Source: an uncultured delta proteobacterium (GTDB taxonomy: Bacteria; Myxococcota; UBA727; VGSZ01). Taken from it: a DNA stretch of 64,000 nucleotides. The notes beneath the pieces are model-generated. The model searched no databases, was not told the origin of the DNA, and saw only the letters and a program-made list of their open reading frames with translations. Where the stretch lies: contig CAVZJB010000005.1 in NCBI GenBank assembly GCA_963775425.1, forward strand, positions 512,001-576,000, in the 5' to 3' direction. A program made the translations under genes and the position numbers. Shown here piece by piece: positions 6,680 through 29,301 of this stretch (the first letter of the stretch is position 1; each line of letters opens with the position of its first letter).

Positions 6680-6840
6680 GCCTCGTGGGGCGTGCCCTCG
6701 TCACGAGGGGGGCTGTCCCTCCCCGCATCCGGGCGCGCCGAAGCGGGGTCGCACTTTCTCCTATCGCGCCCGCCACGGTTGACCTCGAAGCGACGACGAG
6801 CGAGAACATTGGGCCGCCTCTTTTCGTGCGAGGTCACCCC

Positions 6841-9800
6841 ATGCCTTTTCGCCGTCTCCATGTCTTCACCCTTTTGAGCGCCGCCGCCCTGGCCGTGGCC
6901 TCCGCGGGGTGCAGCGAAAAGATCGAGGAGAAGCAAGCCCAGCTCGGCGGCTCCTGCCTCGGCTGCCACACCGGCATCACGGACATCCATCCCCAGTTCG
7001 CGCTCGCCTGCGTCGACTGCCACGGCGGTCACGACGACGTGCCGCTGCCCGCCGTGGTGGACGTGCGCGACCAGGAGCTGTTGAAGGCGAGCCACGTGCT
7101 GCCGCTGGATCCCGAGATGTGGTGGCCCAACGGCATCGACGACAACGGCGACGGCCGGGTGGACGAGCAGGGCGAGTTCTTCGACGGCCGCGTCGTCGAC
7201 CAGGACGGCAACGCCGGCCTCGCCGAAGGGCGCCAGGCGCCGCGCTTCGAGTTCGACAGCGAGATCAACCGCGACCTGAACTACCTGCGCTTCATCAACC
7301 CGGGTGATCTGCGCGTCGCCGAGGTGAGCTGCGGCGGCCACAACAAGAACGCCAATGCGGCCATGGTCTGCCACGCCGAGACCGTCTACGACGTCCGCCG
7401 CTCCATCATGGCGACCAACGCCGGCGTCTCCGCCGGCGCCCTCTACGGCAACGCCCAGCTCCCCACGGCCGCCGACTACGGCAGCGCCTTCGCGCAGTCG
7501 CAGGTGGGCCAGGACTTCGACGCGCGCAACCCGCGCATCGGCCGCGCCGCCTACACGTTCAACTACGAGGCCATGGACGCGAACTACGACCCCGTGTCCA
7601 ACACCTTCGATCACGATGGGCTGCTCGCGGCGGCCAAGGCCAACCTCGATCCCGACGACGACCTCTACGAGGCCACCGCGGGCGCCGTCAGCGACGACGG
7701 CAGCGCCAAGGACCCGTTCGGCAACCCGCTGGATCCGGGCCCCGGCCTCACCCGCACCGGCAACCAGCTCAAGTTCTTCAATCCGACGGACAAGACCAAC
7801 AACCGCGCCATCGACGTCCTCGAGTACATCGGCAACGGCGCCAACCGCACCTTCCCCCCGCCGGGCACGGGCATCGAGCTGCGCCTCCAGAAGATCCTCG
7901 AGGGCCTCGGCGTCGCGCGCCAGAGCCCCATCCGCAACGCCATCCCCAACGACGGCAAGCCCATCATCAACCCTGTGGACGCGGCGCTGCGCAGCTTCCG
8001 CGCGTACCACGTGCTGAACTTCATGTCGCCGAGCGACAACTTCGGCTTCAAGGACTTCACCACGTCGCCCAACGAGGACGATCCGCCGCCCAACGATCCC
8101 AACGACGTCGAGCTCCAGAACAACAACAACCCGTTCGGGCGCTTCCTGTCGTCAGGCTGCACGTCCTGCCACGTCGAGTACGCCAAGGACGGGCACAACG
8201 AGGAGCCCATCGATCGCACTGTGGCGGACAACGGGCGCCAGCCCGAGACCGCGCTGCCCTTCGGCATCCGCCAGGACCTCGGCCAGCGCGCCTATGCCAA
8301 GCGCCACGAGATCAAGACGGCCGTGCAGCTCAACACCTGCGCGCAGTGCCACGGCTTCGTCACCCGCGTCGACTACGCCGCCGAGGGCAAGTTCGAGCTC
8401 GAGGTCGACTTCACCAACCTCTCGCAGGTGCAGACCATCGGGCCCTTCACGTTCTCCACGCCCAAGACCGCGTGCGTGAACGTGTTCGACAACCTCGCCC
8501 ACTACAAGGACGGCAAGATCCTGAACGAGGGCGAGGGCGTCAGCGAGGATCTCAACAACAACGGTGAGCTCGACGAGGGCGAGGACAAGAACAACAACGG
8601 CTGCCTCGACATCCCCAATCGCGTCGCCCGCAGCGACGCCTTCGACGGGCGCCAGTCCAAGCTCATCTACGGAGGCGCCAACGGCTCGGTCCACCTGCAG
8701 GACATCCACATCGAGGAGGGCATGGCCTGCAGCGACTGCCACGTCACCTCGGTGCACGGCGACTCCAACCTGTACACGCGCAATTGGGACGCGGAGCCCA
8801 TGGAGTGCGAGGACTGCCACGGCACCTCGTACGCCAAGGCCAAGCTCATCTCGTCGGGCCCCAACGGCGGCGACAAGTTCACCGACCCCGTGTGGAACAC
8901 GCCGTTCGGCAAGCCCTGGTTCGAGGAGAAGGACGGCAAGATCATCGAGCACAGCCGCACGCAGGCGGGCCTCGAGTGGGAGGTCGCCCAGCTCGTCGAC
9001 GAGAAGGTCGGCGACGCCAAGACGGCGTACGCCAAGTACGCCCACGAGCAGCCGGCGGAGACCATCCCCAATCCAGGTCGTGAGCAGGAGGCGCGCGCCT
9101 TCGCCCACATGCAGGAGGCGGGTAAGCCCGGCGGCCTCGAGTGCTACTCCTGCCACTCCTCGTGGCAGCCCAACTGCCTCACGTGCCACCTCAAGATGGA
9201 CGTGGGCAAGGCCAAGCAGGAGATCTGGTGGGGTGACGACGACGAGTCTGAGATCTTCTTCCAGCTCTTCAGCTACACGCGCTCGCCCTTCTACCTGGGC
9301 CGCGGCGGCGACGTCGAAGGCAACCGCATCTCGACGTACCGCTCCACCATGCAGACGCACCTGACGGTCACCGCCACCGTCGGCAACCAGGGCTTCACCC
9401 TGCTCGACAACGCCATGGTCGCGTCCAACCAGCACCTGAGCTCGATGGTGTCGAACCCGTACTTCCCGCATACGGTGCGCGTCACCGAGACCAAGTCGTG
9501 CGCGCGCTGCCACACGCTCGAGGACGAGCAGGGACGCATCGAGAACGATCACCTCATCACGGAGGCCACGGGCCAGGGCTCGGGCCGCTACATGAACCTC
9601 GGCGATTGGGGCCTGGTGGCCACCACCAACGGCTTCCAGCAGATCGATCTCAAGGCCGAGGGCGGCACGTTCAACGCGCAGGCCAAGGCCCCCGGGATCA
9701 CCTTCCCCGGCTTCGACTTCTCCGACGTCAACCCGCGCCACGCGGACTTCCTCGTGGGCAACGCCACTGACGTGGCCATGCTCCGCGGCGTCGCCTTCGA

Positions 9801-11172
9801 GGACGGCAGCTCCGACCTCGCCGACGTCGCCATCGTGGCGCACAGCGGCGGCGTCTCCATGGTCGACGTCACCGGTCGCGACAACGTGGGCCTGCCGCCC
9901 ACGGAGATCGCGCGCGTGGACTCGCTCGGCCCGGTGGTCTCCGTCGACGTCATCGACACGGCCGCTTCGCAGTCCAAGCGCTTCGTCGCGGTGACGGACG
10001 AGGAGCTGTGCACCATCGACTTCACGAACGCCCTGCAGACCGACACGGTGGCGCCCGTCATCGACGCCGACGCCGGTCAAGAGGGCGACGACGGCGGCGT
10101 GGTGGACGCGGGCGTGGACGGCTTCCTCCAGGGCACGCGCATCGTCGGCTGCCTGCCGCACGGCCTCGACGCCGTCACCCGCGTCAAGCTCCACGGCCGC
10201 TTCGCGGTGGTGGCGCACAGCCGCGGCGTGACGCTGTTCCAGCTCGCGGACAGCGACGACGCGGCGGTGGTGGACCCCGGCGCGCCGCTGGCCGCCATCG
10301 CGACCTTCGAGACCACGCACCCGGCGCTCGACGTCGAGACCTCCGGCCGCTTCATGTACGTGGCCACGGGCCTCGGCGGCGTGGAGACCTTCGACATGGG
10401 CCCCTTCGTCTACCCGCTGTTCGATCAGGACAGCCACGATCCCCTCCAGGGCAGCACGGCGCGCGTCTCCCAGGCGCTCACCAACCAGCAGCAGGAGGCG
10501 GACACGCGCGGCATCGCCGTCTTCGGCAGCCGGCTGCTCGTGGCCGACGGCAAGAACGGCCTGCGCATCCTCGACATGGCGGTGCCCGCCAATCCGCGGC
10601 TCGAGCGCACCATCCGCGACGTCGCGGGCCAGGCGCCCATCGATCAGGCCACGGCGGTGGTGGTGGGGACGGAGACGGTGCGCAACTACGCGCTCGTCGC
10701 CGACGGCTCCCACGGCATCCGCGCGGTGAACATCACGCCGTCCACGGACCTGCGCCTGCAGCTCAAGGACGCGCTCGATCCGGCCAAGCGGGACGCCACC
10801 CGCGGCTTCCGGCTCTCCGAGGAGCGCTGGGACCCGCTCACGCCGTTCGACCCGAAGAACACGACGCCCAAGGTCTTCACCTACGCGACCAACGGGAACG
10901 CGGTCGCGTTGGCCAAGGGCCTGGCCTTCGACAACATCGCGGACAAGAGCGGCAGGCAGCTCCGGGACGGCTGGAGCATCGGCTCCACGACCCTGGATGA
11001 AGCCACCATCGCCAGAATGCGATCGGTGATCGTCAAAGAGGTCCAAGGTACGGTAGACATCTCCGGTGACGGCCTCGGATGCGTCGTGCGCGCAGGCGAC
11101 GAAAACGATGTGGCCAGGGACCCGGAGGATCAGAACCGATGCCTTCCTGTTCAGTCTCGAGGCGGCGAGTGA
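6841..11172 (+). CDS. Large multiheme c-type cytochrome lipoprotein (9 CxxCH + one CX12CH) with C-terminal LVIVD-like beta-propeller
   Basis: ATG 6841, lipobox LAVASAGC; CLGCH, CVDCH, CTSCH, CAQCH, CSDCH, CEDCH, CYSCH, CLTCH, CARCH; repeats FMYVATGLGGVETFD, LLVADGKNGLRILD, YALVADGSHGIRAVN; DxNxxG loops. Confidence 0.88.
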   Translation: MPFRRLHVFTLLSAAALAVASAGCSEKIEEKQAQLGGSCLGCHTGITDIHPQFALACVDCHGGHDDVPLPAVVDVRDQELLKASHVLPLDPEMWWPNGIDDNGDGRVDEQGEFFDGRVVDQDGNAGLAEGRQAPRFEFDSEINRDLNYLRFINPGDLRVAEVSCGGHNKNANAAMVCHAETVYDVRRSIMATNAGVSAGALYGNAQLPTAADYGSAFAQSQVGQDFDARNPRIGRAAYTFNYEAMDANYDPVSNTFDHDGLLAAAKANLDPDDDLYEATAGAVSDDGSAKDPFGNPLDPGPGLTRTGNQLKFFNPTDKTNNRAIDVLEYIGNGANRTFPPPGTGIELRLQKILEGLGVARQSPIRNAIPNDGKPIINPVDAALRSFRAYHVLNFMSPSDNFGFKDFTTSPNEDDPPPNDPNDVELQNNNNPFGRFLSSGCTSCHVEYAKDGHNEEPIDRTVADNGRQPETALPFGIRQDLGQRAYAKRHEIKTAVQLNTCAQCHGFVTRVDYAAEGKFELEVDFTNLSQVQTIGPFTFSTPKTACVNVFDNLAHYKDGKILNEGEGVSEDLNNNGELDEGEDKNNNGCLDIPNRVARSDAFDGRQSKLIYGGANGSVHLQDIHIEEGMACSDCHVTSVHGDSNLYTRNWDAEPMECEDCHGTSYAKAKLISSGPNGGDKFTDPVWNTPFGKPWFEEKDGKIIEHSRTQAGLEWEVAQLVDEKVGDAKTAYAKYAHEQPAETIPNPGREQEARAFAHMQEAGKPGGLECYSCHSSWQPNCLTCHLKMDVGKAKQEIWWGDDDESEIFFQLFSYTRSPFYLGRGGDVEGNRISTYRSTMQTHLTVTATVGNQGFTLLDNAMVASNQHLSSMVSNPYFPHTVRVTETKSCARCHTLEDEQGRIENDHLITEATGQGSGRYMNLGDWGLVATTNGFQQIDLKAEGGTFNAQAKAPGITFPGFDFSDVNPRHADFLVGNATDVAMLRGVAFEDGSSDLADVAIVAHSGGVSMVDVTGRDNVGLPPTEIARVDSLGPVVSVDVIDTAASQSKRFVAVTDEELCTIDFTNALQTDTVAPVIDADAGQEGDDGGVVDAGVDGFLQGTRIVGCLPHGLDAVTRVKLHGRFAVVAHSRGVTLFQLADSDDAAVVDPGAPLAAIATFETTHPALDVETSGRFMYVATGLGGVETFDMGPFVYPLFDQDSHDPLQGSTARVSQALTNQQQEADTRGIAVFGSRLLVADGKNGLRILDMAVPANPRLERTIRDVAGQAPIDQATAVVVGTETVRNYALVADGSHGIRAVNITPSTDLRLQLKDALDPAKRDATRGFRLSEERWDPLTPFDPKNTTPKVFTYATNGNAVALAKGLAFDNIADKSGRQLRDGWSIGSTTLDEATIARMRSVIVKEVQGTVDISGDGLGCVVRAGDENDVARDPEDQNRCLPVQSRGGE

Positions 11173-12890
11173 AGCTCGCGACCCCGGCCGCCGCCCTGTT
11201 TCTCCTCGTGGGAACGGTGGCGGCGGCGAGGGCGGACGCGCAGACAGTCGATGCGTCCGTAGTTCCCACCTATGTGGACAGCGTGCAGCGCGGCCTTCGC
11301 CTGCGCATGGACCTGTGGGGTCGTGAGGCCCTGATCGGCAACCCCGATCCGCCGGTCCAGCTCATCGTCCCGGATGTCGTCAACGAGAAGAACGACACGG
11401 ACGTGGGCGGCATGGTGATCCTGGGCTGGGACAGGCCCTTCGGCGTCCCGCTGACCACCGATCTCATGGGCGACGTCACGAGCGACATCGGCGGTGACTC
11501 GCCGGTGAGCCCGTTCCTCGACGACACGAGCGTCGCGCCCAAGGCCCACATCTATTCGGCGTTCATCGGGCTGTCGGGGGCGCCGGGCGAGGCGCTCGAG
11601 CCGTTCAAGCTCAACATCGGCCGCATGACACAGGTGAGCGAGTCCCCGATCACCTACGACGGCATCTCCACCGGCGTGAACCTCAAGTTCCCCAAGCTCG
11701 GCTTCCTGAACGCCAAGGTCTGGGGCGGCCTCGACGCGCCCCAGCACCTCGCCGCCGATCCCTTCTCCCGCACCGACGCCAAGTACTACCAGGAGCAGTA
11801 CCAGGACCTCTCCGGCTTCGTGTCGCCCACCGGCGGCAAGGAGATCGTTCGCAGCCCGCTCGACTTCAACGCCGACGGCACCCAGGACCCGAACCTCAAC
11901 GCGGTGTTCGGTCTCGACGTCGAGGGCCGCTTCGCGGGCGTCGGCTTCACGCTCACGCACACCTCCATGCCTGCCGCGGGCAGCATCGTCACAGACGAGG
12001 AGAACAACGTGTTCCTGCCGCTCCAGCGCACCACGCTCGAGGGCAGCTACGGTGACGACAGCGATCTGTTGTCATGGATGGTGGCGGCGGACCTGAAGGC
12101 GTCGGACTTCCTGCCGCGCTCCACCGCGCTCAAGGGCGACGTCCTCACCGGCGACGGCACCACCCGCATCGGCGGCAACGTGACGTACCAGTTCCTCGAC
12201 GACATCTGCGCCTACGACTGCACCTTCCGCGCGTTCGACCCCGCCAACAACATCGATCAGGTCCCCGATCAAGGCGCGGTGCTCACCAACGATCAGGTGG
12301 AGGCGGCGCGGGTGCACGATCAGATCCGCCACCTCAACATCGGACCGGCCAAGCCCAACATCGCCCTCGTCGTCGATGCCGAGCGCCAGCTCCCCGCGGG
12401 CTTCACCGCCCTGTTGCGGGGCCGGGTGCGCCAGCACTTCAACGCGGCCGACCTCGATTACTTCCGCACCAACGTCTACGAGGCGGGCGCGGGGGCGAGC
12501 TGGTCCACGGGCCTCGCGCTCGAGGTCGGCACCGAGGTCTACGGTGGCGCCCTCGACTCCGGCGCCGCCGCGGACAAGGGGCTCGACTACACCCTCGTTC
12601 AGGAAGGGATCACCTCCTACGTCGAGAATCGCACCTGGGTCCGCACCGTCCTTCTGGAGGGGAAGCTGTCGAACCTGGCCGAGGCCTTCGTGCGCAGAGA
12701 GGACATCCAGACCAAGGCGCTCGTCGCCTCCGGCCAGTGGAGCGGCGCCTTCGCCGACACGCTGCGCTACGACGTCATCGACTTCTGGTCCGTCTCCGCC
12801 CGGCTCGACGCGGATGCGCTGTCGCCGGTCGACACGCTGAACGGCTCGGGGTACCTCGGGGCCCTGGTGGCGACCTCACTCAAGTTCTGA
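11169..12890 (+). CDS. Probable outer-membrane beta-barrel (porin-like) protein
   Basis: GTG overlaps upstream TGA; signal peptide MKLATPAAALFLLVGTVAAARADA; alternating amphipathic strands; C-terminal ...LGALVATSLKF ending in Phe; sits between multiheme genes. Confidence 0.7.
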   Translation: MKLATPAAALFLLVGTVAAARADAQTVDASVVPTYVDSVQRGLRLRMDLWGREALIGNPDPPVQLIVPDVVNEKNDTDVGGMVILGWDRPFGVPLTTDLMGDVTSDIGGDSPVSPFLDDTSVAPKAHIYSAFIGLSGAPGEALEPFKLNIGRMTQVSESPITYDGISTGVNLKFPKLGFLNAKVWGGLDAPQHLAADPFSRTDAKYYQEQYQDLSGFVSPTGGKEIVRSPLDFNADGTQDPNLNAVFGLDVEGRFAGVGFTLTHTSMPAAGSIVTDEENNVFLPLQRTTLEGSYGDDSDLLSWMVAADLKASDFLPRSTALKGDVLTGDGTTRIGGNVTYQFLDDICAYDCTFRAFDPANNIDQVPDQGAVLTNDQVEAARVHDQIRHLNIGPAKPNIALVVDAERQLPAGFTALLRGRVRQHFNAADLDYFRTNVYEAGAGASWSTGLALEVGTEVYGGALDSGAAADKGLDYTLVQEGITSYVENRTWVRTVLLEGKLSNLAEAFVRREDIQTKALVASGQWSGAFADTLRYDVIDFWSVSARLDADALSPVDTLNGSGYLGALVATSLKF

Positions 12891-12912
12891 ACTCTCTCTT
12901 TCGGATGACGCC

Positions 12913-13908
12913 GTGAACCTGCGATCGCTCGCCCCCCTCGGACTCTCCCTGGCAGTCGCCGCCACGTGCGCCGGCGTGGGCGTCGCGTTCGCCGCCCACG
13001 CGGCGCCCCCCGCGCCGCCGCCGGCCGCGCCGCCGCCGCCGGCGGCCACGGGCAACGGCCCGCCCACGGGGATGAACCTCATCGACACCTCGAGCCCCTT
13101 CGACCACGACGTCCACCTGAACCCCGCCAAGATGGGCGGCAAGAAGATGGGCTGCGAGTCCTGCCACAAGATGGTGAACAAGGACGGCACCTGCCCCAAG
13201 CAGGAGGTGCGGTTCCCCGAGCACGACGCCTGCCAGGCGTGCCACACGGCGAACTTCTATACGCAGCCGCTCACCATCTGCACCAACTGCCACAAGGCCA
13301 ACATCTTCCAGAAGCGGCCGCCGCTGCGCGAGCTGACCCGGCAGGTCACGCCGCGCAAGGCGGAGTTCTCGCACCGAAGCCACCTCGATGCGAAGAAGGG
13401 CACGGACTGCACCTCGTGCCACTCGGTGCTCAGGGGCGGCCTCGTCATCGGGCACCCGAGCCACCCGAACTGCTGCCAGTGCCACTCGGGCCCCGGGCTC
13501 AACGGCAAGATCGCCGAGCCGCACATGAACAAGTGCGGCTCCTGCCATGACACGGCGAAGAACGCCGGGCGTCCGCCGTCCACCATCCACGACTTCAGCC
13601 ACAAGATGCACCGCGAAGACCCGCGTACGCATACGTCGGTGGCGTGCCAGCAGTGCCACATCAACATGGTCCAGGCCACGACGCTGCGGCAGATCCGCAT
13701 CCCGCCGATGCCCGTGTGCCTGCAGTGCCATGACGGCTCCGATCCGAACAAGCCGAACCCCAAGAACCCGGCGTGGAGCGGCACGGGCGCGTTCAACTTC
13801 ACCGCGTGCCTGAAGTGCCACCTCCCGGGCAGCATCCAGAACCGCCCGCTGCCTCCGGGCCACCCGGGGGCTCCCACCGCTCCCACCGAGGCGGGGGCCA
13901 ACCCATGA
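12913..13908 (+). CDS. Periplasmic nonaheme cytochrome c (three c7-like triheme units)
   Basis: Signal peptide; 9 CxxCH (CESCH, CQACH, CTNCH, CTSCH, CCQCH, CGSCH, CQQCH, CLQCH, CLKCH), each triplet preceded by F[DS]HxxH. Confidence 0.9.
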   Translation: MNLRSLAPLGLSLAVAATCAGVGVAFAAHAAPPAPPPAAPPPPAATGNGPPTGMNLIDTSSPFDHDVHLNPAKMGGKKMGCESCHKMVNKDGTCPKQEVRFPEHDACQACHTANFYTQPLTICTNCHKANIFQKRPPLRELTRQVTPRKAEFSHRSHLDAKKGTDCTSCHSVLRGGLVIGHPSHPNCCQCHSGPGLNGKIAEPHMNKCGSCHDTAKNAGRPPSTIHDFSHKMHREDPRTHTSVACQQCHINMVQATTLRQIRIPPMPVCLQCHDGSDPNKPNPKNPAWSGTGAFNFTACLKCHLPGSIQNRPLPPGHPGAPTAPTEAGANP

Positions 13909-15950
13909 GTGCCGCTGTCTTCCGCCGCCGCGTCCGCGCGGCGCTGCCCTTCGCCGGTCTCGCGGTCCTCGTCGTCGCCGGCGCGCTCGTGGTGAACGGG
14001 GCCATGGCCACCGAGCGCCACAAGGTCGAGGACGGCGAGACCGTCGAGGCCATCGCGCAGGCGATGTACGGCGATCCCGGCAAGGCCGCCATCGTCCGCG
14101 CGGCGAACAAGATCCCCGACGGCGAGCAGCCGGCGGTGGGCGCGTTCCTCAAGATCCCCGGGCCGCTGATCCACACGGTGCAGGCCGGTGAGAACCTGCA
14201 GAAGGTCGCCGACCGCTTCCTCTCCGGCGAGGGCGGCGCGGCCATCATCGCCGAGGCCAACGGTCTCGCGGCCAACGCGCACTTGAAGCCCGGCCAGGTG
14301 CTGACGGTGCCGGCCGAGGTGGAGCTGCGCACCAAGGGCAAGTCCGCGGAGGACATCGCCACCGCGCTCCTCGGCGACGCGCACCTCGGCGCGCGCATCC
14401 GCCGCTACAACGGCGTCGCCGACGGCGGGAAGCTGCCCGCCAAGATCTACGTGCCCCTCGTCGGCATCGAGCCGCTCGGCGCGCCCGGCGCCGTCGCGGT
14501 CGCGCCCGCCGCGCCTGCGCCTGCGCCCACGCCGGCGCCGCCGACGGCGCCCGCGCCCGTCCCCGCCGCGCCGGTCCCCGCCGCGCCGGTCCCCGCGCCG
14601 GCCGCGCCTGCACCGGCGGCGCCTGCGCCCGCGGCGCCTGCTCCCGCGGCGCCTGCTCCGGCGGCGCCGGCCCCGCTGCGCCGGCGGCTCCGGCCCCCGC
14701 GGCCCGCGCCCGCGCCCGCGCCCGTGCCCGCGCCCGTGCCCGCGATGTCGCCTGCGATGGGCGGCCCGATCGATCTCACGATGCCGGTCACGGGCAAGCG
14801 CGCCACGCTCGCGGGCTTCTCGCACGCGCTGCACACGCCGCTGCAGATCGGCGGCAAGCCCGTCGGCTGCCTCGTGTGCCACGAGCGCGTGTCGCCGGAG
14901 TCCGTCGAGCACAAGGCGCCGTCCAAGGACAACTGCATGCTCTGCCACAAGGTGAGCGACGACATGCCGGCGCAGCTTCGCAAGGGACAGATCAAGCGGC
15001 TGCCGCTGCCGATGAACCACGAGCTGCACGTCGGGCAGAACGGCCTCGACTGCATCATCTGCCATCGCAACGAGCCCGAGCGGGCGCTCGGCATCATCAC
15101 CAACGGCCACGCGGCCTGCACCGTCTGCCACAACGCCAACGGCGGAAAGACGCCGTACGTCGGCGGCGACCCCGAGGGCGCGATGTGCACGCAGTGCCAC
15201 GGCACCGTCGAGCAGGTCGACGAGGGCAACGAGCACACCAAGTACCTGCGCGCGCACCTGATGCGTCCCGTGGGCCGCGTGGGCGACGTGAGCTTCACGC
15301 ACATGACGCACGCGGCGTTCTCCGAGAGCGGCGCGCCGGGCAGCGGTCCCGCCATCGACTGCAAGACCTGCCACGTCGACGCGTACACGGCAGAGCGCAA
15401 GGAAGACATCTCCAAGGTGCAGATGCAGGGCTGCCTCGAGTGCCACCGCGAGGCGAACGCGGTGGGGCTTCAGCCGCCGCAGTCGTGCAACGGCTGCCAC
15501 CTCTATCTGCGTCGCGGCGAGATGCCGATCAACCAGCTCACGCTCAAGAAGCCCATCGACCACACGCCGTTCTTCCGACGTCACCACGCCGACGCGGCGC
15601 GCGACAACGCGCCCCTATGCGCGTCGTGCCACGTGGGCTCCGACGGCGCGGACGGTAGCCGCTGCGACACCTGCCACATGACGATGAAGCCGCGCGATCA
15701 CACCGCCGGCTTCCGCGACAAGGTGCATGGGCGGGAGTCGCAGATCGATCCTGCGCGTTGCCAGGTCTGTCACCGCGCCGAGCGCTGCGAGAGCTGCCAC
15801 CGAGAAGTGCCCAAGAGCCACTTCCCGCTGAACGTCTGGGTCGACAAGGGTCTCCACGGCTCGCGCGGCCGCCTCGAGATGGGCGCATGCCTCACCTGCC
15901 ACCGCTTCGAGACCACCTGCCAGCGTTGCCACACCGCCGTCGCCAAGTAG
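13905..15950 (+). CDS. 3xLysM + Pro/Ala linker + 14-heme cytochrome c
   Basis: ATGA overlap with upstream gene; N-terminal signal/TM; LysM-like HKVEDGETVEAIA, HTVQAGENLQKVA and a degenerate third; 14 CxxCH. Confidence 0.88.
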   Translation: MSAAVFRRRVRAALPFAGLAVLVVAGALVVNGAMATERHKVEDGETVEAIAQAMYGDPGKAAIVRAANKIPDGEQPAVGAFLKIPGPLIHTVQAGENLQKVADRFLSGEGGAAIIAEANGLAANAHLKPGQVLTVPAEVELRTKGKSAEDIATALLGDAHLGARIRRYNGVADGGKLPAKIYVPLVGIEPLGAPGAVAVAPAAPAPAPTPAPPTAPAPVPAAPVPAAPVPAPAAPAPAAPAPAAPAPAAPAPAAPAPLRRRLRPPRPAPAPAPVPAPVPAMSPAMGGPIDLTMPVTGKRATLAGFSHALHTPLQIGGKPVGCLVCHERVSPESVEHKAPSKDNCMLCHKVSDDMPAQLRKGQIKRLPLPMNHELHVGQNGLDCIICHRNEPERALGIITNGHAACTVCHNANGGKTPYVGGDPEGAMCTQCHGTVEQVDEGNEHTKYLRAHLMRPVGRVGDVSFTHMTHAAFSESGAPGSGPAIDCKTCHVDAYTAERKEDISKVQMQGCLECHREANAVGLQPPQSCNGCHLYLRRGEMPINQLTLKKPIDHTPFFRRHHADAARDNAPLCASCHVGSDGADGSRCDTCHMTMKPRDHTAGFRDKVHGRESQIDPARCQVCHRAERCESCHREVPKSHFPLNVWVDKGLHGSRGRLEMGACLTCHRFETTCQRCHTAVAK

Positions 15951-20184: not shown

Positions 20185-21627
20185 ATGACCGACGTCTCCG
20201 ACGAGTGGACGGCGCTTCTCAAGGCCATCCCCTTCCTCTCCGCGCTCCCGGAAAAGACCCTGAAGGACAGGGTCATCCTCGGAAAGATCCCGCAGGCCGA
20301 GGTGCCCGCCTCCCTCGTCGAGGTAGGCGACGGCGAGCTGGTGATCCGCGAGGGGGACTTCGGCGACACCTTCTACGTCATCGTCAACGGCACCTTCGTC
20401 GTCGAGGTGTGGAACGACGACGGCGTCGCCGTCGAGGTCACGCGCATCGGCCGCGGCTCCTACTTCGGTGAGCTCGCCATGATCGGCCGCGGCATGCGCG
20501 CGGCGTCGGTGAAGGCGGTCGGCGCGGGCGCGCAGGTGCTCGAGATCTACAAGGGCCCGTTCGACCGCATCATCAAGGACGACAAGACCAACTCGGTGAA
20601 GAACGCGCTCGAGGCCATCTACGCGCGGCGCACCATCGAGAAGTTCGTGCGTGACAACGAGTACCTGCGCGAGCTGTCCGAGGTCGACAAGAAGCTGATC
20701 GTCGACACCGGCAAGCTTCACCGCGTGGAGGCCTTCCACGACGTGTACAAGGCCGGTGATCCGCCCAAGAGCTTCTACCTCGTGCGCCAGGGCTTCCTGA
20801 AGGTGTGGCGCATGGAGGGCGAGGTGGAGAGCATCCTCGCCTACCTGCGCGACAAGGACTTCTTCGGCGACCTCGAGCTCGTCGAGGGGCGCCAGCGCAC
20901 GGCCACGGTGACGTCGATGGAGCCGGTTGAGCTCGTGGAGCTGCCGCGCTCGGTGTTCGCCGGCATCTACCAGCGCTACCCCGACCTCATCAAATCGTTC
21001 CGCCGCTACGAGCTCGACCGCCGCGCCGAGCTGCCGCAGTTGTCGAGCAAGACCGGCATGATGTTCGTCAAGGACCTCATCGAGTCCGGCATGGGCCAGG
21101 CGCGCTCGGCGCTCATCATCAACATGGACCTGTGCACCCGCTGCGGCAATTGCGTGCAGGCGTGCAGCGACCTCCACGACGGGTACTCGCGGCTCATCCG
21201 CCGCGGCAAGAAGCTCACCCACCGTGACGACGGCGGCGGCCTCGAGAACCTCTTCTTCCCGAACTCCTGCGTGCATTGCCGCACGCCCGACTGCATGGCC
21301 GGCTGCCCCGTCGGCTCCATCGCGCGCGACAAGGACGGCGAGGTCTACATCAAGGACTTCTGCGTCGGCTGCGGCGCGTGCGCCAAGGGCTGCGAGTTCG
21401 GCAACATCTCGATGGTGGTCGCCAAGAACGCCGACGGCACCGAGAAGAAGATGGCCGGCAGCAACAAGGTCGTGCGCAAGGCCTCCAAGTGCGACATCTG
21501 CAAGGGCTACGAGCAAGCCAACTGCGTCTACAACTGCCCGCAGGGCGCCATCATCCGCATCGACCCCAACGAGTACTTCGAGGAGCTCCACCGCACGGTG
21601 GACATCGTCTCGATGGCGCAGGGCTGA
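20185..21627 (+). CDS. Tandem cNMP-binding domains fused to a DmsB/NrfC-like 4x[4Fe-4S] ferredoxin
   Basis: ATG 20185; FGELAMIGRGMRAASV and FFGDLELVEGRQRTATV cassettes; CTRCGNCVQAC, CVHCRTPDCMAGCP, CVGCGACAKGC, KCDIC...NCVYNCP; no signal peptide. Confidence 0.9.
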   Translation: MTDVSDEWTALLKAIPFLSALPEKTLKDRVILGKIPQAEVPASLVEVGDGELVIREGDFGDTFYVIVNGTFVVEVWNDDGVAVEVTRIGRGSYFGELAMIGRGMRAASVKAVGAGAQVLEIYKGPFDRIIKDDKTNSVKNALEAIYARRTIEKFVRDNEYLRELSEVDKKLIVDTGKLHRVEAFHDVYKAGDPPKSFYLVRQGFLKVWRMEGEVESILAYLRDKDFFGDLELVEGRQRTATVTSMEPVELVELPRSVFAGIYQRYPDLIKSFRRYELDRRAELPQLSSKTGMMFVKDLIESGMGQARSALIINMDLCTRCGNCVQACSDLHDGYSRLIRRGKKLTHRDDGGGLENLFFPNSCVHCRTPDCMAGCPVGSIARDKDGEVYIKDFCVGCGACAKGCEFGNISMVVAKNADGTEKKMAGSNKVVRKASKCDICKGYEQANCVYNCPQGAIIRIDPNEYFEELHRTVDIVSMAQG

Positions 21628-24158: not shown

Positions 24159-25085
24159 ATGGCAAGCACGACAGCACCCGCCCCTGCCGCGCCGCTGAAG
24201 CCGAAGAGCAGCAAGAAGCTCTCCGACAAGACACTCAAGGAGCGCGCGTTCCGCTGGGACAAGCTCGCCGCGTGGCTCGCGGCGTTCTTCGCCCTGGCCG
24301 CCGTCTGCGGCCTGTGGGCGCTCTCCAAGTACGTCCTCGACGCGCCGTCGCGGGGCGGGCGCGGCACCGGCGGCGACACCATCGTCGGCTACACCCTCGC
24401 GGGCATCACCCTCATCCTCTACGGCGTCGTCGCCGCGTACTCGTGGCGCCACAAGCGGCGCCGGCAGAAGCGCGCGATGACCCGGGTCTGGATGGAGGTG
24501 CACCTGGCGTTCGGCATGGTCGCCGGCGTCACGGCCATCCTCCACTCGGGCCCCAAGCTCGGGGCGCCCATCCACGGCGCGTTCCTCATCGCCTGGGAGC
24601 TCCTCATCCTCACGGGCATCGTCGGCAAGCTCATCAGCGTCTACGTGCCGCGCCGGCTCACGCGCATCGAGGACGAGGCCCTGCTGGTGGAGGACGTGGC
24701 CGAGCGCCAGAAGGCCATGCGCCTCGAGATCGAGCAGCTCCTCACGGACTGCGACGACAAGCTGGTGCACATCGTCAACGACGTCATCCCCAAGAAGATC
24801 AAGGCGCCCGACTGGTACGGCAAGCGCCGCATGAAGCGCCACGACGTCGTGGAGAGCGTCTACAAGGCCATCGACGGCGAGGGCATGCTCGCCCGCGGCG
24901 AGGTCCCCGCCGACAAGAAGGACTGGCTCAAGCGCATGATCACGTGCCTGGTCGAGGAGGAGTTCCTCGATCGCATGCTCACCTACCACTACGTGCTGCG
25001 CGCGTGGGTGCCCGTCCACGTGGCGCTCACCACGCTGTGCTTCCCCTGGCTCATCTTCCACGTCGTCAGCGTGTTCTTGATCTAG
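24159..25085 (+). CDS. Inner-membrane protein, probable diheme cytochrome b (ferric-reductase-like TM domain)
   Basis: About 5 TM helices; two H-X13-H pairs inside helices (HLAFGMVAGVTAILH, HVALTTLCFPWLIFH). Confidence 0.7.
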   Translation: MASTTAPAPAAPLKPKSSKKLSDKTLKERAFRWDKLAAWLAAFFALAAVCGLWALSKYVLDAPSRGGRGTGGDTIVGYTLAGITLILYGVVAAYSWRHKRRRQKRAMTRVWMEVHLAFGMVAGVTAILHSGPKLGAPIHGAFLIAWELLILTGIVGKLISVYVPRRLTRIEDEALLVEDVAERQKAMRLEIEQLLTDCDDKLVHIVNDVIPKKIKAPDWYGKRRMKRHDVVESVYKAIDGEGMLARGEVPADKKDWLKRMITCLVEEEFLDRMLTYHYVLRAWVPVHVALTTLCFPWLIFHVVSVFLI

Positions 25086-25095
25086 AGGTCCACCG

Positions 25096-28000
25096 ATGTT
25101 CTGCCTGAAGGTCGTCGACGGACTGTCTGCCGGTATCGAGATCCTGCTCAAGCAGGGAGGCACCACCACCGTCGGCCGCGCCGAGGACGCCGACGGTCAG
25201 ATCGAAGACGGCCTGTGCTCCGGCAAGCACTTCGAGATCGAGTGGACGGCGGCGGGGATGATCATCAAGGACCTCGGGTCCTTGAACGGCGTCTTCGTCA
25301 ACGGCGAGCGCGTCCGCGAAAACCGCCAGGTCAAGCGCGGCGACTTCATCCAGGCCGGGACCACGCTGATGGAGATCGCCGTCAGCTCGGGCAACGTCGA
25401 GGTCAAGGTCAGCGAGCGCGAGCCGGCCATCAGCGGCAAGGCCACGATGATGATGGACGCGGCGGCGGTGCAGGACGCCATCGCGCGCACCCGCGCCCAG
25501 GCGCGCGTGAAGGCCAAGGAGCTCAACCGCACCGTCATCAAGACGCAGATGATGACCAAGGCCGAGATCGCCAAGCTGATGACCGATCAGCCGGTGAGCA
25601 AGGCCAAGACCATGGTCCTGCAGGCGCTCCCGCCGGAGATCCTCGCGGGCACCAACAACGCCGGCCTGGCCATCCTGCAGAAGCTCCTCGCCGACGTCAC
25701 GCCCGACAACCCCACCGTGTGCGTGGTCAAGAAGGGCGCGTCCATCACGCCCTACGCCAAGAGCGTCATCACGCTCGGCCGTGACGCGCGCAACGACATC
25801 CCGCTCATCAGCGACGACGTCTCCGGCAGCCACGCCCGCATCGTGAAGGAGCCGTCGGGGCGCTTCGAGGTCATCGACGAGGGCTCCACCAACGGCACCT
25901 TCGTCAACGGCAAGCGCGTCGTGCGCCAGTACCTGCAAAACGGCGACACCATCCAGCTCGGCCAGTGGACCGGGCCCGTGGCGCTCTCTGCCGGGCGCAT
26001 GGCCATGGAGCTCAACCGCGAGGGCGTCTCCGTCAAGGACGACAAGGGCGTCATCAAGGTCCTCAAGGTCGGCGACGAGGGCGCCAAGGAGTGGGACCCG
26101 CTTCTGCGTGAAGCCGTGCGCGCGCCGATGCTCGTCAAGAGCGACCGTGGCGAGAAGTTCAAGAAGAAGAAGAAGGGCAAGAGCGCCGACGACATCGCGT
26201 TCCGCGCCACCGGTGACGTCCAGCGCGGGGCGATGAAGAGCCGGCTCGCGTGGGCCGGCGTCCTGACGTCGCCGATCGTCATCGCGCTGTTCTTCGGCGG
26301 CTACTTCGTCGTCTCGCTGCTGCACAAGGGCTCCACCTTCGATGCGCTCTCCCCGGGCGCCATCACCAACGCGCACGCGAGCGAGACGTTCATCGCCAAG
26401 GCCAAGGAGGCGGCGTCGGCGGAGAACAAGTTCGGCGGTCACACCACCTGCTTCGCGTGCCACCCCGGGCTCAACCGCGAGGTGACGGACACCGCCTGCT
26501 CGAGCTGCCACTCCCAGGTACCGACGTCGACGCACACCGAGGTGGGGCTCACCTGCTTCGACTGTCACGGCGAGCACAACGGCCGCAACTTCTCGCCGAC
26601 GGCGCAGGCGCGGCTCGGCTGCGTCGGCTGCCACCAGGGCGACCCGCACGCGCGCCTCTTCGACAAGGGCGAGGGGAAGAAGGCGCGGGCCAAGGCGCCG
26701 GTGATCACGCAGGCGCAGCTCAACATCGACAAGGCCGAGGTGCACGAGAAGCACTTCAACATCGAGGGGCGCTGCGTCGCGTGCCACGCCGTCGCCGAGG
26801 GTGCGACGGCGCTGACCAGCCCGGAGGAGATCGCCAAGCAAGCGCGCAAGTCGTGCGGCATCTGCCACGCCGCCACCGACCCGCAGCCCGACGAGTGCGT
26901 GCGTTGCCACGTGCAGCACCCGAAGGACGCCGCGCTCGTCGAGTTCCTGAAGGCGCAGCCCACCAACGAAGACGACATCAAGCAGGCGCGCATCGATCCC
27001 GGCACCGTGCCCATCTTCCTCGCGCTCGCCTTCGGCATGACGCTGCCGCTCGTGCTCGCGGCGGTGGTCAAGCCGAAGCCGAAGCAGAAGAAGGAGCAGG
27101 TCGTCGAGGAGAAGGCGGGCGCCAAGCCTGCGGGCGCTCCCGCCGGCGCCGCGCCGCCTCCGCCCGGCCCGCCGGGCGCGCCGCCGCCCCCTCCCGGGGC
27201 GCGGGCTCCGGGGCCACCTCCCCCGCCACCGGGCGGGGCGCCGCCGCCTCCGCCGCCGGGCGGGGCGCCGCCGCCGCCGCCGCCACCGGGCGGGCGCGCG
27301 GCGCCGCCGCCGCCTCCGCCGCCGGGCGGCATGGCGCCGCCTCCGCCGCCTCCGCCGGGGGGCGCGCCGCCGCCGCCGCCTCCGCCGCCGGGGGGCCGCG
27401 TCGCGCCGCCGCCTCCGCCGCCGCCCGGCGGGGTCCCCGCGCCGCCGCCGCCGCCCGGTGGCGTGCCGCCTCCGCCTCCGCCCCCGGGAGGGATGGCGCC
27501 GCCTCCGCCTCCGCCGCCGGGCGGTGTGCCGCCTCCGCCCCCTCGTGCCGCGCCGCCGCCTCCCCCGGGAGTCCCGCCGCCGCCGCCGCCCCCCGGAGGC
27601 CCGCCGCCGCCGCCGCCCGCCGCGGCCCGGCCAGCGCCCGCGGCGCCGCCGCCTCCGCCCCCGCCCGCCGCGGTGGCGCCTCCGCCGCCTCCTGCGGCGC
27701 GGCCGGCGCCGCCGCCGCCACCCCCTCCCGCCGCGCGGCCAGCGCCGCCTCCGCCGCCTCCCGCGGCGCGGCCGGCGCCTCCACCGCCGCCGCCGGCAGC
27801 CGCACCTCCGCCGCCGGCGCCCCGGCCGGTGGCGCCGGCGCCGGTGCCCGCGCCTCCTCCGCCGGCTCCGGTGGTGCGCGCGGGGACCAAGGCCGCGATG
27901 CAGATCCCGGCACAGCCCGCCCCGGTGCCGGCGCAGCCCGCGGTGCGCGCGGGGACCAAGGCCGCGATGCAGATCCCCGACCCGCGCCAGGCGCCACAGC

Positions 28001-28227
28001 CGCCACAGCCGCCGCAGCAGGGGCAGCCGCCGCCACAGCAGCCGCCACCGCAGGGGCAGTTCCGCAACCCGACGACGGCCAAGGGGACGATGCTCGGGAC
28101 CATGCCCGTCGTCGACGAGGACATGATCCGGCGCGCCCAGCAGCAGATCAACCAGGGCAAGCCCGGCACGCAGGTCTCCGGCAAGGGCGGCGCCGCGCCG
28201 CTGCCGCCGGACAAGGACAAGAAGTAG
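25096..28227 (+). CDS. 2xFHA - TM - heptaheme cytochrome c - TM - polyproline tail protein
   Basis: Two FHA domains (GR, SxxH, DxGSxNGxFVNG); TM LAWAGVLTSPIVIALFFGGYFVV; 7 CxxCH; second TM VPIFLALAFGMTLPLVLAAVV; long Pro-rich tail with PnGG repeats. Confidence 0.88.
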   Translation: MFCLKVVDGLSAGIEILLKQGGTTTVGRAEDADGQIEDGLCSGKHFEIEWTAAGMIIKDLGSLNGVFVNGERVRENRQVKRGDFIQAGTTLMEIAVSSGNVEVKVSEREPAISGKATMMMDAAAVQDAIARTRAQARVKAKELNRTVIKTQMMTKAEIAKLMTDQPVSKAKTMVLQALPPEILAGTNNAGLAILQKLLADVTPDNPTVCVVKKGASITPYAKSVITLGRDARNDIPLISDDVSGSHARIVKEPSGRFEVIDEGSTNGTFVNGKRVVRQYLQNGDTIQLGQWTGPVALSAGRMAMELNREGVSVKDDKGVIKVLKVGDEGAKEWDPLLREAVRAPMLVKSDRGEKFKKKKKGKSADDIAFRATGDVQRGAMKSRLAWAGVLTSPIVIALFFGGYFVVSLLHKGSTFDALSPGAITNAHASETFIAKAKEAASAENKFGGHTTCFACHPGLNREVTDTACSSCHSQVPTSTHTEVGLTCFDCHGEHNGRNFSPTAQARLGCVGCHQGDPHARLFDKGEGKKARAKAPVITQAQLNIDKAEVHEKHFNIEGRCVACHAVAEGATALTSPEEIAKQARKSCGICHAATDPQPDECVRCHVQHPKDAALVEFLKAQPTNEDDIKQARIDPGTVPIFLALAFGMTLPLVLAAVVKPKPKQKKEQVVEEKAGAKPAGAPAGAAPPPPGPPGAPPPPPGARAPGPPPPPPGGAPPPPPPGGAPPPPPPPGGRAAPPPPPPPGGMAPPPPPPPGGAPPPPPPPPGGRVAPPPPPPPGGVPAPPPPPGGVPPPPPPPGGMAPPPPPPPGGVPPPPPRAAPPPPPGVPPPPPPPGGPPPPPPAAARPAPAAPPPPPPPAAVAPPPPPAARPAPPPPPPPAARPAPPPPPPAARPAPPPPPPAAAPPPPAPRPVAPAPVPAPPPPAPVVRAGTKAAMQIPAQPAPVPAQPAVRAGTKAAMQIPDPRQAPQPPQPPQQGQPPPQQPPPQGQFRNPTTAKGTMLGTMPVVDEDMIRRAQQQINQGKPGTQVSGKGGAAPLPPDKDKK

Positions 28228-28340
28228 CGCTCGGCGGAGCACGCTCGCCGGCCCGCCGGAGCTGGGCCCGCCGGCGGGGATCCGGCCGCGCTCAGAAGAC
28301 GTGCGCCGCGCCTGCAGGCAGAGCGAACGAGCCACCATTC

Positions 28341-28400: not shown

Positions 28401-28402
28401 AC

Positions 28403-29261: not shown

Positions 29262-29301
29262 GCCCCGCGCAGTCGCCACACGCGGCGACGCGGCCGCGGC
29301 G

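Follow-up and report, generated by a model that had tools for sequence, protein, structure and literature searches.

In the literature searched, fusions of forkhead-associated (FHA) domains with multihaem cytochromes c are found only in a pangenome table of Gallionellaceae and in a preprint on Ferrigenium, neither of which gives them a function in its accessible parts (PMC9900912 / PMC10734462; bioRxiv 10.64898/2026.01.22.701106). One row of the table is cluster 403, a 10-haem 'Forkhead-associated protein' present in 27 genomes of Gallionellaceae (PMC9900912 / PMC10734462). According to the available text of the preprint, Ferrigenium straubiae possesses a trio made of a protein that joins an FHA domain, one transmembrane (TM) segment and a nonahaem cytochrome (NHC), of a 5-TM protein and of a [4Fe-4S] protein; this cluster showed expression in every condition tested and its function was left open. 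The same text states that the combination of FHA and multihaem domains had not been reported before and that the 5-TM neighbour has no InterPro match, and its authors favour an exchange with the quinone pool, citing the architectural similarity of NHC to CymA and NrfH (bioRxiv 10.64898/2026.01.22.701106). We describe here a Myxococcota variant of this FHA-multihaem module. It is located in a stretch of 64,000 nucleotides (hereafter the window; contig CAVZJB010000005.1, positions 512,001 to 576,000) from an uncultured delta proteobacterium, where the gene at 25096..28227 on the + strand encodes an FHA-heptahaem cytochrome. The likeness to the Ferrigenium trio is one of domain layout and gene neighbourhood.

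The window protein and NHC have in common a cytosolic FHA part, the lack of a signal peptide, a TM anchor and a multihaem c domain that is predicted to be periplasmic. As in Ferrigenium, the window and two of six related loci (L001 and L005, see below) also encode a [4Fe-4S] protein and, next to the cytochrome, a 5-TM protein that belongs to no known family, whereas L004 has the 5-TM protein only. The window protein differs from NHC by two FHA domains separated by a Thr-bearing linker, by 7 haems instead of 9 or 10, by a second TM segment and by a long Pro-rich tail. Furthermore, the ferredoxin of the window carries two domains of the type that binds cyclic nucleoside monophosphates (cNMP), and the host belongs to Myxococcota, not to Gallionellaceae.

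The tandem-FHA part recalls the regulatory module of Rv1747 from Mycobacterium tuberculosis. The two FHA domains of Rv1747 flank a disordered linker of ~98 residues, in which T152 and T210 are substrates of PknF, and phosphomimics make the module more compact; for clustering, the available text cites Heinkel et al. (PMC8339232). Both modules consist of two canonical FHA domains and a linker of ~100 aa, predicted to be disordered in the window protein, with conserved Thr. However, the effector of Rv1747 is an ABC exporter whose kinase PknF is encoded nearby, whereas that of the window is a multihaem cytochrome without ABC domains; no Pkinase domain that would point to an adjacent Ser/Thr kinase of the Rv1747 type was found among the window open reading frames (ORFs) scanned. 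The second FHA domain is closest by sequence to OdhI and GarA (OdhI 2kb3, E 1.3e-8; 6i2q), metabolic regulators with a single FHA domain. Self-docking, as in these regulators, is the mechanism put forward by the original prediction, a reading of the bare sequence, which saw the Thr motifs as kinase targets that bind the FHA domains of the same protein. The window protein, in contrast, is membrane-bound and reaches 79.2 bits with the NCBIfam OdhI model (cut-off 200). It also lacks the ETTS-type N-terminal tail, which we take to be the motif whose phosphothreonine (pThr) is docked by GarA and OdhI themselves.

To our knowledge, the crossing of the inner membrane towards multihaem chains is documented for few families (CymA, CbcL, ImcH and the Tmc/Hmc/Dsr complexes), and the post-translational regulation of this step is largely unknown. 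The Tmc, Hmc and DsrMKJOP complexes of sulfate reducers associate a periplasmic multihaem cytochrome c, a membrane cytochrome b and a cytoplasmic iron-sulphur (FeS) protein. The scores obtained here are far below the cut-offs of these families, there is no CCG or HdrD-like subunit, and FHA and cNMP-binding domains are fused to the proteins of the window. As described in the accessible part of PMC6295460, CbcL combines 9 c-haems with a dihaem-b membrane domain, and ImcH has seven haem motifs, three N-terminal TM helices and adjacent atypical CX3CH then CX2CH motifs. CbcL/CbcBA, ImcH and CymA share with the window cytochrome a membrane-anchored multihaem c domain on the periplasmic side, and two adjacent genes of the window would reproduce the c-haem and dihaem-b combination of CbcL as separate subunits. 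Nevertheless, no significant sequence match to any of these proteins was seen; the HydC/FdnI-type domain, the CX3CH motif and the three N-terminal TM helices are missing, and these families are not characterised by cytoplasmic FHA domains or an FeS partner.

In our estimation, the chances are about even that the FHA-heptahaem cytochrome supplies the c-haems of a regulated transmembrane conduit, made of FeS, haem-b and haem-c subunits, which would feed or drain a multihaem chain. The gene and its relatives, the domains of its product and the neighbouring genes are examined below from this standpoint.

The FHA-heptahaem gene and its relatives

The ORF at 25096..28227 (+) is open for 1043 codons. 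Its product consists of FHA1, a linker of ~110 aa, FHA2, TM1, seven CXXCH motifs, TM2 and a Pro-rich tail of 383 aa, and all the motifs quoted in the original prediction are present in the translation, so that the FHA-FHA / heptahaem / Pro-rich architecture announced there is borne out by the ORF and by the Pfam and motif scans. The GC content at third codon positions (GC3) of the whole ORF reaches 0.93, as expected of a true coding frame at the 72% GC of the window. Over the whole protein, two stretches match Pfam PF00498 (FHA; E 2.5e-36, 124.4 bits versus a cut-off of 20.7), and the haem domain matches Cytochrome_C7 (PF14522; 33.6 bits, cut-off 24.8) and Cytochrom_c3_2 (PF14537; 30.1 bits, cut-off 25). 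Pfam and NCBIfam scans detected no enzymatic domain in the polypeptide. A GAGG sequence lies 7 nt before the ATG at 25096, and this ribosome-binding site overlaps the stop codon of the upstream 5-TM gene. A scan of 19500-29500 found no promoter-like site, and the five terminator-like sites of this region (3.7 expected) are uninformative.

A word-indexed protein search using residues 1-670 as query retrieved 40 proteins at E <= 1e-3. Among them, 11 metagenomic proteins (P0002-P0012) cover 99-100% of the query with 52-70% identity, and P0013 and P0014 are fragments that belong to the same family. In parallel, one genome per species was scanned for related loci; 25 pattern matches yielded six confirmed loci (L001-L006), which all come from metagenome-assembled genomes (MAGs) of Myxococcota, Myxococcales or 'Deltaproteobacteria' and share 56-59% identity with the window protein over residues 1-663 to 1-675. 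As the same fusion recurs in 11 proteins and in six MAG loci, the gene is real and conserved. The possibility that the fusion was an assembly artefact, which the original prediction had kept in mind, thus does not hold across relatives with 52-70% identity.

The haem domain and its membrane topology

The haem domain was compared at greater distance by exhaustive phmmer searching of 1.84 billion representatives with the TM1-haem-TM2 region. This recovered 41 proteins at E <= 1e-3, of which three overlap with the residues 1-670 search and 38 are new. Exactly seven CXXCH motifs are found in 22 of these 38 and ten in six. The Pfam scan covered 32 of them (P0058, P0065, P0069, P0070, P0077 and P0078 were left out) and identified one to three N-terminal FHA domains in 20.

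The domain (aa 411-635, 26326..27000, +) contains exactly seven CXXCH motifs, at positions 452, 468, 487, 509, 560, 587 and 601; scanning of the whole protein by script revealed no CX3CH or CX4CH motif. Residues 340-675 were aligned with two close and eight distant relatives (26-51% identity). At this level of divergence, T372, D374, L418, H427, F432, the seven CXXCH, H480, H494, H518, H550, H553, H608 and P635 are invariant. The seven CXXCH motifs are thus accompanied by exactly seven other invariant His, which fits the requirement of seven bis-His haems. Seven CXXCH also occur in all 17 two-FHA members examined. The best sequence match of the domain in the Protein Data Bank (PDB) is a cytochrome c7 (3h4n, E 2.8e-4): only the last three haems (aa ~547-606) align with this c7/c3 (PpcA) family, whereas the window protein has seven haems in ~225 aa.

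The haem domain lies between two hydrophobic stretches (about 383-410 and 635-659). TM1 (aa ~383-410, 26242..26325, +), a probable signal-anchor, has Kyte-Doolittle values above 1.6 in 19-residue windows and corresponds to a helix (364-409) of an AlphaFold2 (AF2) model. This model, which covers aa 1-675 and was built with a 12-sequence alignment (A2), has a mean predicted local distance difference test (pLDDT) of 51 and is confident in the two FHA domains only. TM2 (aa 636-659, 27001..27072, +) reaches a hydropathy of 2.53, corresponds to the AF2 helix 638-657 and is followed by KPKPKQKK. There are 14 Lys and Arg in residues 340-385 before TM1 (including KKKKKGK) and 6 in residues 650-675 after TM2. 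The hydropathy and charge counts therefore bear out a haem domain placed between two TM segments with Lys-rich cytoplasmic flanks, as originally described.

The fusions found in distant relatives bear on the same question. Among the 32 relatives scanned, five carry a 4Fe-4S ferredoxin domain and a flavoprotein domain of the pyridine-nucleotide-disulphide type after the haem domain, and four of these five also have FHA domains. P0057, P0066, P0072 and P0073 are single polypeptides of the type FHA(1-3)-TM-haems-TM-Fer4-Pyr_redox, and P0067 has the Fer4 and Pyr_redox domains after its haem domain but no FHA (lengths of 929-1345 aa). In the four FHA-bearing fusions, the second hydrophobic segment precedes the ferredoxin domain. 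As FHA, ferredoxin and flavoprotein domains are cytoplasmic, haems situated between the TM helices would be periplasmic, and c-type haem attachment indeed occurs in the periplasm. Considering the positive-inside distribution of charges, the FHA domains before TM1 and the Fer4 and Pyr_redox domains after the haems in five relatives, the predicted topology is an in-out-in hairpin with a periplasmic haem domain, in keeping with the location initially proposed.

Two side observations concern these distant relatives. The fusion proteins would join a cytoplasmic reductase to periplasmic haems within a single chain; three have 7 CXXCH, and P0066 counts 8, one of which is within its ferredoxin part. 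In the 10-haem relative P0063, both termini carry an FHA domain, the C-terminal one being located after TM2 and a short Pro/Ala-rich spacer.

A membrane-anchored periplasmic multihaem protein without signal peptide could also work alone as a quinol dehydrogenase or as a quinone reductase, in the manner of CymA/NapC/NirT or ImcH. The haem nearest to the membrane would then exchange electrons with the quinone pool directly, and the 5-TM protein would be no more than an accessory. Such an enzyme would agree with weak similarities to NrfH (TIGR03153, E 0.045) and to ExtN/ExtO, with the CymA/NrfH-like architecture argued for NHC in the available text of the preprint (bioRxiv 10.64898/2026.01.22.701106) and with the seven haem motifs that ImcH likewise has according to the accessible part of PMC6295460. 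However, the NrfH score is 13.8 bits for a cut-off of 134, and both the CX3CH motif and the three N-terminal TM helices of ImcH are absent. In addition, every haem has an invariant candidate distal His, so that no haem is an obvious high-spin haem of a quinol site, and the CXXCHxM motif, which NrfH presumably carries, does not occur in the sequence. We therefore hold this explanation to be quite improbable. Membership of both families was rejected: for NapC/NirT/NrfH/CymA, which have a single N-terminal TM and a tetrahaem domain, on the basis of the TIGR03153 score (cut-off 134.2), seven haems, two TM segments and a cytoplasmic N-terminus of 380 aa; for ImcH, on the basis of the lack of CX3CH/CX4CH and of the single TM helix before the haems.

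FHA domains, linker and juxtamembrane segment

FHA1 (aa 1-98, 25096..25389, +) matches the Pfam FHA and Yop-YscD_cpl models at residues 5-95, and the AF2 block has pLDDT values of 67-87. FHA2 (aa 208-308, 25717..26019, +) matches the Pfam FHA model at residues 225-289. Both are predicted to be cytoplasmic. The residues that form the pThr pocket of FHA domains are Gly-Arg, Ser-x-x-His and Asn-Gly. Their retention in both domains, noticed from the start, is confirmed by the alignment of the 12 full-length members: G27-R28, S42, H45 and N64-G65 in FHA1, and G228-R229, S243, H246 and N266-G267 in FHA2, are invariant in all 12. Both are candidate pThr-binding domains. The closest solved relative of FHA1 is the FHA domain of Rv0020c/TB39.8 (FhaA; 3po8, E 3.7e-7), and the FHA domains of Rv1747 are, besides OdhI and GarA, the closest solved relatives of FHA2. 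Tandem-FHA ABC transporters align with ~40% of the query at 25-27% identity. Several NCBIfam equivalogs, which matched by way of their FHA parts, were considered and rejected, as the whole-protein scores are below the cut-offs for GltG (68.3 versus 650), TagH (47.2 versus 120), FhaB-FipA (97.8 versus 125), OdhI (79.2 versus 200) and EspA (62.7 versus 1400).

The linker (aa 99-207, 25390..25716, +) is left disordered by the AF2 model (pLDDT below 50 for residues 99-188). It carries the three motifs pointed out in the original prediction, KATMMM at 115, KTQMMT at 149 and KTMVL at 171, whose Thr (T117 in ATMMM, T150 in KTQM and T172 in KTMVL) are invariant in the 12 full-length members together with M119, M120 and M173. 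The pattern T-x-[MLIV]-[MLIV] occurs 3-4 times per linker in the 12 close members versus 0.4-0.8 times in composition shuffles; as these linkers are related sequences, they do not represent independent cases of enrichment. For the window linker alone, the pattern is found three times versus 0.77 expected in shuffles (p 0.03). Altogether, the 12 close linkers contain 42 occurrences and the five distant linkers 5, for 8.7 expected overall from shuffles. Taking into account this partial conservation and the precise precedent of Rv1747, docking of FHA domains onto phosphorylated Thr of the linker is plausible by analogy.

The cytoplasmic juxtamembrane segment (aa 309-382, 26020..26241, +) includes a basic run followed by I-A-F-R-A-T372-G-D374-V. 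In the close family, K358-K362, S363, D366, I367, T372, D374 and R377 are invariant, and T372 and D374 are the only cytoplasmic residues of the aligned stretch (aa 340-675) that stay invariant at 26-51% identity. A regular expression, [WFY]-x-x-T-x-D-[LIVMT] before the first CXXCH and TM1, finds a match in 19 of the 38 representatives, one of these matches being probably spurious. T372, in the context [WF]-x-x-T-x-D-[LVI] before TM1, is therefore the most widely conserved cytoplasmic Thr and was missing from the list initially drawn up; it would be a better-conserved candidate phosphorylation site than the Thr of that list. Many bacterial FHA domains prefer an aliphatic residue at position pT+3, which T-x-D-[LVI] provides. 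T372 is placed by the AF2 model, with low confidence, in the helix leading into TM1, and a helical location would argue against binding of an FHA domain at this site.

Among the six related loci, L003 is the only one with a kinase gene close to a family member, a Ser/Thr Pkinase gene located ~6 kb upstream. More generally, its region 2852-6865, 3-7 kb upstream of the FHA-heptahaem gene, contains genes of a Ser/Thr protein kinase and of a hybrid histidine kinase, and a MshEN-domain gene lies directly upstream of the FHA-heptahaem gene on the opposite strand.

The 5-TM neighbour

The gene immediately upstream (24159..25085, +), whose start was set by comparison with P0081, ends 10 nt before the ATG at 25096 and encodes a 308-aa protein with five TM segments. 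In 20 aligned sequences, H115 and H129 (TM3) and H287 and H301 (TM5) are invariant and constitute two H-x13-H pairs; they remain invariant at 18-20% identity, where few other residues do. Two H-x13-H pairs on two helices are the classical pattern of ligands in transmembrane dihaem b proteins, in which the His of a pair are about 13-14 residues apart. According to where hydrophobic segments and positively charged loops lie, each membrane face would have one His of each pair close to it.

The homologue search found 93 proteins, all unnamed or annotated as 'hypothetical' except one labelled DUF485. A profile search using the alignment of the family (A3) gave close relatives and five weak matches only (E 8e-5 to 6e-4). 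Three weak leads are compatible with a haem-b protein: an Atlas match to the cluster 'Ferric reductase like transmembrane component' (score 0.92), a sub-threshold similarity to Ni_hydr_CYTB (cytochrome b561) in 3 of the 20 members (best E 0.0038) and a likewise sub-threshold PepSY_TM match in the L004 orthologue (E 6e-4). The 5-TM protein probably represents an undescribed family of dihaem-b proteins.

The linkage with the FHA gene is recurrent, as the two genes adjoin in four of the seven loci (the window, L001, L005 and, divergently, L004). Moreover, the longest contigs are of equal size for three further pairs of cytochrome and 5-TM proteins (P0005/P0110, P0011/P0136 and P0012/P0159), which suggests that they are also linked. 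A 'KTLK' phospho-motif shared by the N-terminal tail of the 5-TM protein and the N-terminus of the ferredoxin was dropped as evidence, because it belongs to an ordinary N-terminal helix of the cNMP domain in the ferredoxin and is lost in distant 5-TM members.

The cNMP-binding ferredoxin and the multihaem cluster

Further upstream, the gene at 20185..21627 (+) encodes a 480-aa, presumably cytoplasmic protein with two cNMP-binding domains (Pfam cNMP_binding, E 1.2e-34) and a ferredoxin of the four-cluster 4Fe-4S type (Fer4 families). Its matches in the PDB are the regulatory domains of PKA and PKG on the one hand and FeS subunits of the HycB3, NrfC and PsrB type on the other, and the ferredoxin part has sub-threshold NCBIfam similarities to DsrO, NrfC, HybA and HmcB. 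Both phosphate-binding cassettes appear to keep the Arg that we take to belong to this motif. The combination of PKA-R-like cNMP domains with a HycB/NrfC-like ferredoxin suggests that an electron-transfer subunit is controlled by cyclic nucleotides.

A cluster of multihaem genes (6337..15950, +) precedes the ferredoxin gene, as deduced from CXXCH counts, N-termini and Pfam matches. It comprises a 1611-aa ORF with 9 CXXCH, an ExtM-like stretch and an LVIVD repeat (6337-11172), the gene of a 603-aa secreted protein of no family, that of a 9-haem c7-like protein (12913-13908), which has sub-threshold NCBIfam similarities to HmcA, TmcA and QrcA, and that of a protein with LysM and 14 haems (13773-15950). 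The listed N-terminus of the 1611-aa ORF looks non-coding; its true start is probably located later, and its C-terminal third is conserved in L001. The same order was found by tblastn in L001 and L005: large multihaem protein, unknown protein, 9-haem protein, LysM-14-haem protein, cNMP-ferredoxin, 5-TM protein and FHA-heptahaem protein. The FHA gene is thus accompanied by the cNMP-ferredoxin and the 9-, 9- and 14-haem cytochromes in three of the seven loci. L002 has a small Fer4 gene ~5 kb upstream of the FHA gene.

Compared with L001 and L005, the window contains extra inserted genes, of YfhO-like, PMT-like and pyrroloquinoline quinone (PQQ)-type dehydrogenase products, the latter with a dihaem domain. 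The YfhO-like (+) and PMT-like (-) genes at 15758-20369, which resemble membrane glycosyltransferases, lie between the LysM-14-haem and ferredoxin genes; they are largely absent from L001 and L005, and their listed starts are probably too long. At 21678-23990 (+), a beta-propeller resembling glucose/sorbosone dehydrogenases is fused to a dihaem cytochrome c of the SO2930 family behind a lipoprotein-like N-terminus. No match to this product was found in L001 or L005, where the corresponding position lies between the cNMP-ferredoxin and 5-TM genes.

As the putative dihaem-b protein, the cNMP-ferredoxin and the multihaem cluster, a context missed by the original prediction, are all encoded nearby, the genomic context points to electron transfer rather than to pure signalling. 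This bears on the idea of a transmembrane redox sensor, in which the periplasmic haems would report the ambient redox state or a haem ligand and alter, through the two TM helices, the binding properties of the FHA domains or of the tail, the output being a signal and not a bulk flow of electrons. A sensor would agree with the lack of an enzymatic domain in the polypeptide, with the signalling role of FHA domains, with the cNMP sensor domains of the partner ferredoxin and with the position of T372 and D374, the most conserved cytoplasmic element, at the boundary of TM1 where a conformational signal would arrive. Nevertheless, seven close bis-His haems (~32 aa per haem) are an arrangement that we take to be typical of electron wires, the haem domain has been fused repeatedly to a ferredoxin and a flavin/NAD(P) oxidoreductase, and a sensor would hardly explain why a four-His membrane protein as well as 9-, 14- and 9-haem cytochromes are encoded alongside. 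The sensor hypothesis is consequently considered unlikely.

A proposed regulated conduit across the inner membrane

The conduit preferred here can be viewed as follows. The FHA-heptahaem protein would be its periplasm-facing c-haem subunit; the bilayer would be spanned by the 5-TM protein with its four His (24159-25085), which is translationally coupled and a putative dihaem b; and the cNMP-binding four-cluster ferredoxin (20185-21627) would form its cytoplasmic part. Electrons would pass, in either direction, between the FeS clusters, haem b, the seven c-haems and the neighbouring 9-, 14- and 9-haem cytochromes. A link between the haem domain and FeS proteins is recurrent, because the two are fused in 5 of 32 relatives and are encoded by neighbouring genes in the window, L001 and L005. 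Control by Ser/Thr kinases would be exerted through the FHA domains: these would bind pThr located on the linker, on the juxtamembrane segment, on the tail or on a partner, and thereby alter how the conduit is assembled, clustered or gated. A second messenger would act in addition through the cNMP domains of the ferredoxin. From the residues, domains and gene order described above, we infer the binding of haem b by the 5-TM protein, the formation of a complex, the flow of electrons, the phosphorylation and the docking of the FHA domains.

A more specific proposal can be made, according to which eukaryote-like Ser/Thr phosphorylation and cyclic nucleotides gate the respiratory electron flow at the inner membrane, in a new family of regulated conduits present in Myxococcota and Gallionellaceae and fused to a flavin/NAD(P) reductase in some lineages. 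Here, a dihaem-b protein of a kind not recognised before, with 5 TM and four His, would wire the cNMP-sensing ferredoxin to the FHA-heptahaem cytochrome, FHA binding to pThr at T117, T150, T172 or T372 or in the tail would cluster conduits, as for Rv1747, or uncouple them, and the Pro-rich tail, as a long tether, would hold the conduit in position with respect to its cytoplasmic partners. This extended proposal is doubtful.

Several results weigh against a conserved, kinase-controlled conduit. Concerning gene order, tblastn found none of the tested neighbours upstream of the FHA gene in L002, L003 and L006, so that synteny is not universal, and the downstream context is absent in all six loci, as each contig ends there. 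Concerning the haem domain, its pLDDT is below 50 in the AF2 model, so that neither haem packing nor any quinone site can be judged. Concerning the 5-TM protein, no Pfam or NCBIfam model scores above its cut-off with the window protein (for Pfam, nor with the 20 alignment members); a Foldseek search of its AF2 model (pLDDT 74) against the PDB returned 0 matches at E <= 0.001, the top ones being TM domains of ABC exporters with meaningless TM-scores of 0.12-0.21; and the family profile matched nothing below E 3.5 among PDB sequences. As no haem-b family, fold or structure is matched, the idea of a dihaem b comes down to the His pattern. Furthermore, the A3 profile search recovered names of Myxococcota and 'Deltaproteobacteria' and one weak match from Pirellulales, but no protein named as Gallionellaceae. 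Concerning phosphorylation, the linkers of the five distant two-FHA relatives have 0, 1, 2, 0 and 2 motifs, counts which are individually not significant, and no kinase or PP2C/phosphatase gene was detected by Pfam among the window ORFs scanned.

To what was known of FHA-multihaem proteins and inner-membrane conduits, the window adds an FHA-multihaem protein of Myxococcota whose tandem-FHA module resembles that of Rv1747, a conserved membrane partner with four His that may provide the transmembrane step missing so far, a ferredoxin predicted to sense cNMP and, in relatives, natural fusions to a ferredoxin and a flavin reductase. Together, these elements provide a concrete, testable model of electron export or import controlled by kinases and second messengers.

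The Pro-rich tail

The tail following TM2 is predicted to be cytoplasmic. It comprises a Pro-rich part (aa 660-984, 27073..28047, +), with 11 runs of five to eight Pro followed by GG, and a C-terminal motif region (aa 985-1043, 28048..28227 including the stop codon, +) that reads ...KGTMLGTMP...PGTQVSGKG..PLPPDKDKK. Pro represents 63% of residues 676-900. The sequence VRAGTKAAMQIP is found twice, at 927 and 950, and KGTMLGTMP is at 996. VRAGTKAAMQIP is confined to the closest relatives: P0014 has two copies, and P0003 and P0002 have degenerate forms. An ESM Atlas search with aa 895-1043 gave no usable match.

The length after TM2 varies among lineages, from 23 aa (P0012) and 59 aa (P0008) up to 383 aa in the window protein, and the five distant two-FHA relatives end shortly after TM2; the tail is therefore accessory. 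Near the C-terminus, 11 of 14 family sequences retain the short motif T-[LMF]-[LMIV]-G-[TNM], whose frame is unaffected by the differing tail lengths. The tail would thus fit a disordered tether that presents a short linear motif. Of the long spacer or scaffold proposed in the original prediction, an accessory spacer carrying a short conserved motif stands, whereas its length is specific to lineages and VRAGTKAAMQIP is limited to the closest relatives.

Another view of the protein starts from this tail and from the FHA domains: it might be a structural scaffold of a trans-envelope machine, similar to YscD or GltG, which likewise combine FHA, TM and periplasmic domains, and in this scaffold the tail would recruit cytoskeletal or Pro-binding partners (GYF, SH3-like) and the haems would be secondary. 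The Pfam model Yop-YscD_cpl matches both FHA domains (E 1.3e-21), the NCBIfam model GltG matches FHA2 (E 4.8e-19), and the PPPPPPPGG array resembles what we take to be poly-Pro ligands. But GltG reaches only 68 bits for a cut-off of 650, the tail is absent or short in P0012, P0008 and the five distant two-FHA relatives, and the haem ligands are the most conserved residues of the protein, all of which makes a scaffold very unlikely.

The DNA encoding the tail is repetitive, with 87-88% GC, and forms an imperfect tandem array with periods of 27-33 and 66-69 nt (64-78% matches). In all six related contigs (L001-L006), 3-344 nt remain beyond the match, so that the ends fall within the tails or shortly before them, which indicates that such GC-rich repeats break short-read assemblies and makes the repeat number of the window unverifiable here. 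On these grounds, one could suspect that the ORF is chimeric or that its GC-rich repeat is frameshifted or collapsed. However, in P0002 and P0003 the full architecture is followed by a long tail and, in frame, by the C-terminal motif of the window protein, the fragment P0014 has the haem domain, a long tail and this motif, GC3 is as high as 0.93 across the ORF, and the repeats are imperfect. The tail is consequently taken as real and in frame, and an assembly or annotation artefact has hardly any likelihood. As a side effect of the contig breaks, the tail lengths and downstream genes of the FHA-heptahaem family are under-sampled in databases.

Other genes of the window

Downstream of the FHA-heptahaem gene, a 1472-aa ORF at 29302-33720 (-) has no Pfam match and a GC3 of 0.81. 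It is probably a shadow ORF due to the high GC content, and it overlaps three ORFs of the + strand with a GC3 of 0.92-0.93, including those of an ArsR-like helix-turn-helix protein and a fatty-acid hydroxylase. Further downstream, the region 36847-54008 encodes acyl-CoA dehydrogenases, a thiolase and an enoyl-CoA hydratase/3-hydroxyacyl-CoA dehydrogenase, i.e., enzymes of beta-oxidation, as well as a TonB-dependent receptor and a lipid desaturase; this set of genes appears unrelated to the FHA-heptahaem cytochrome.

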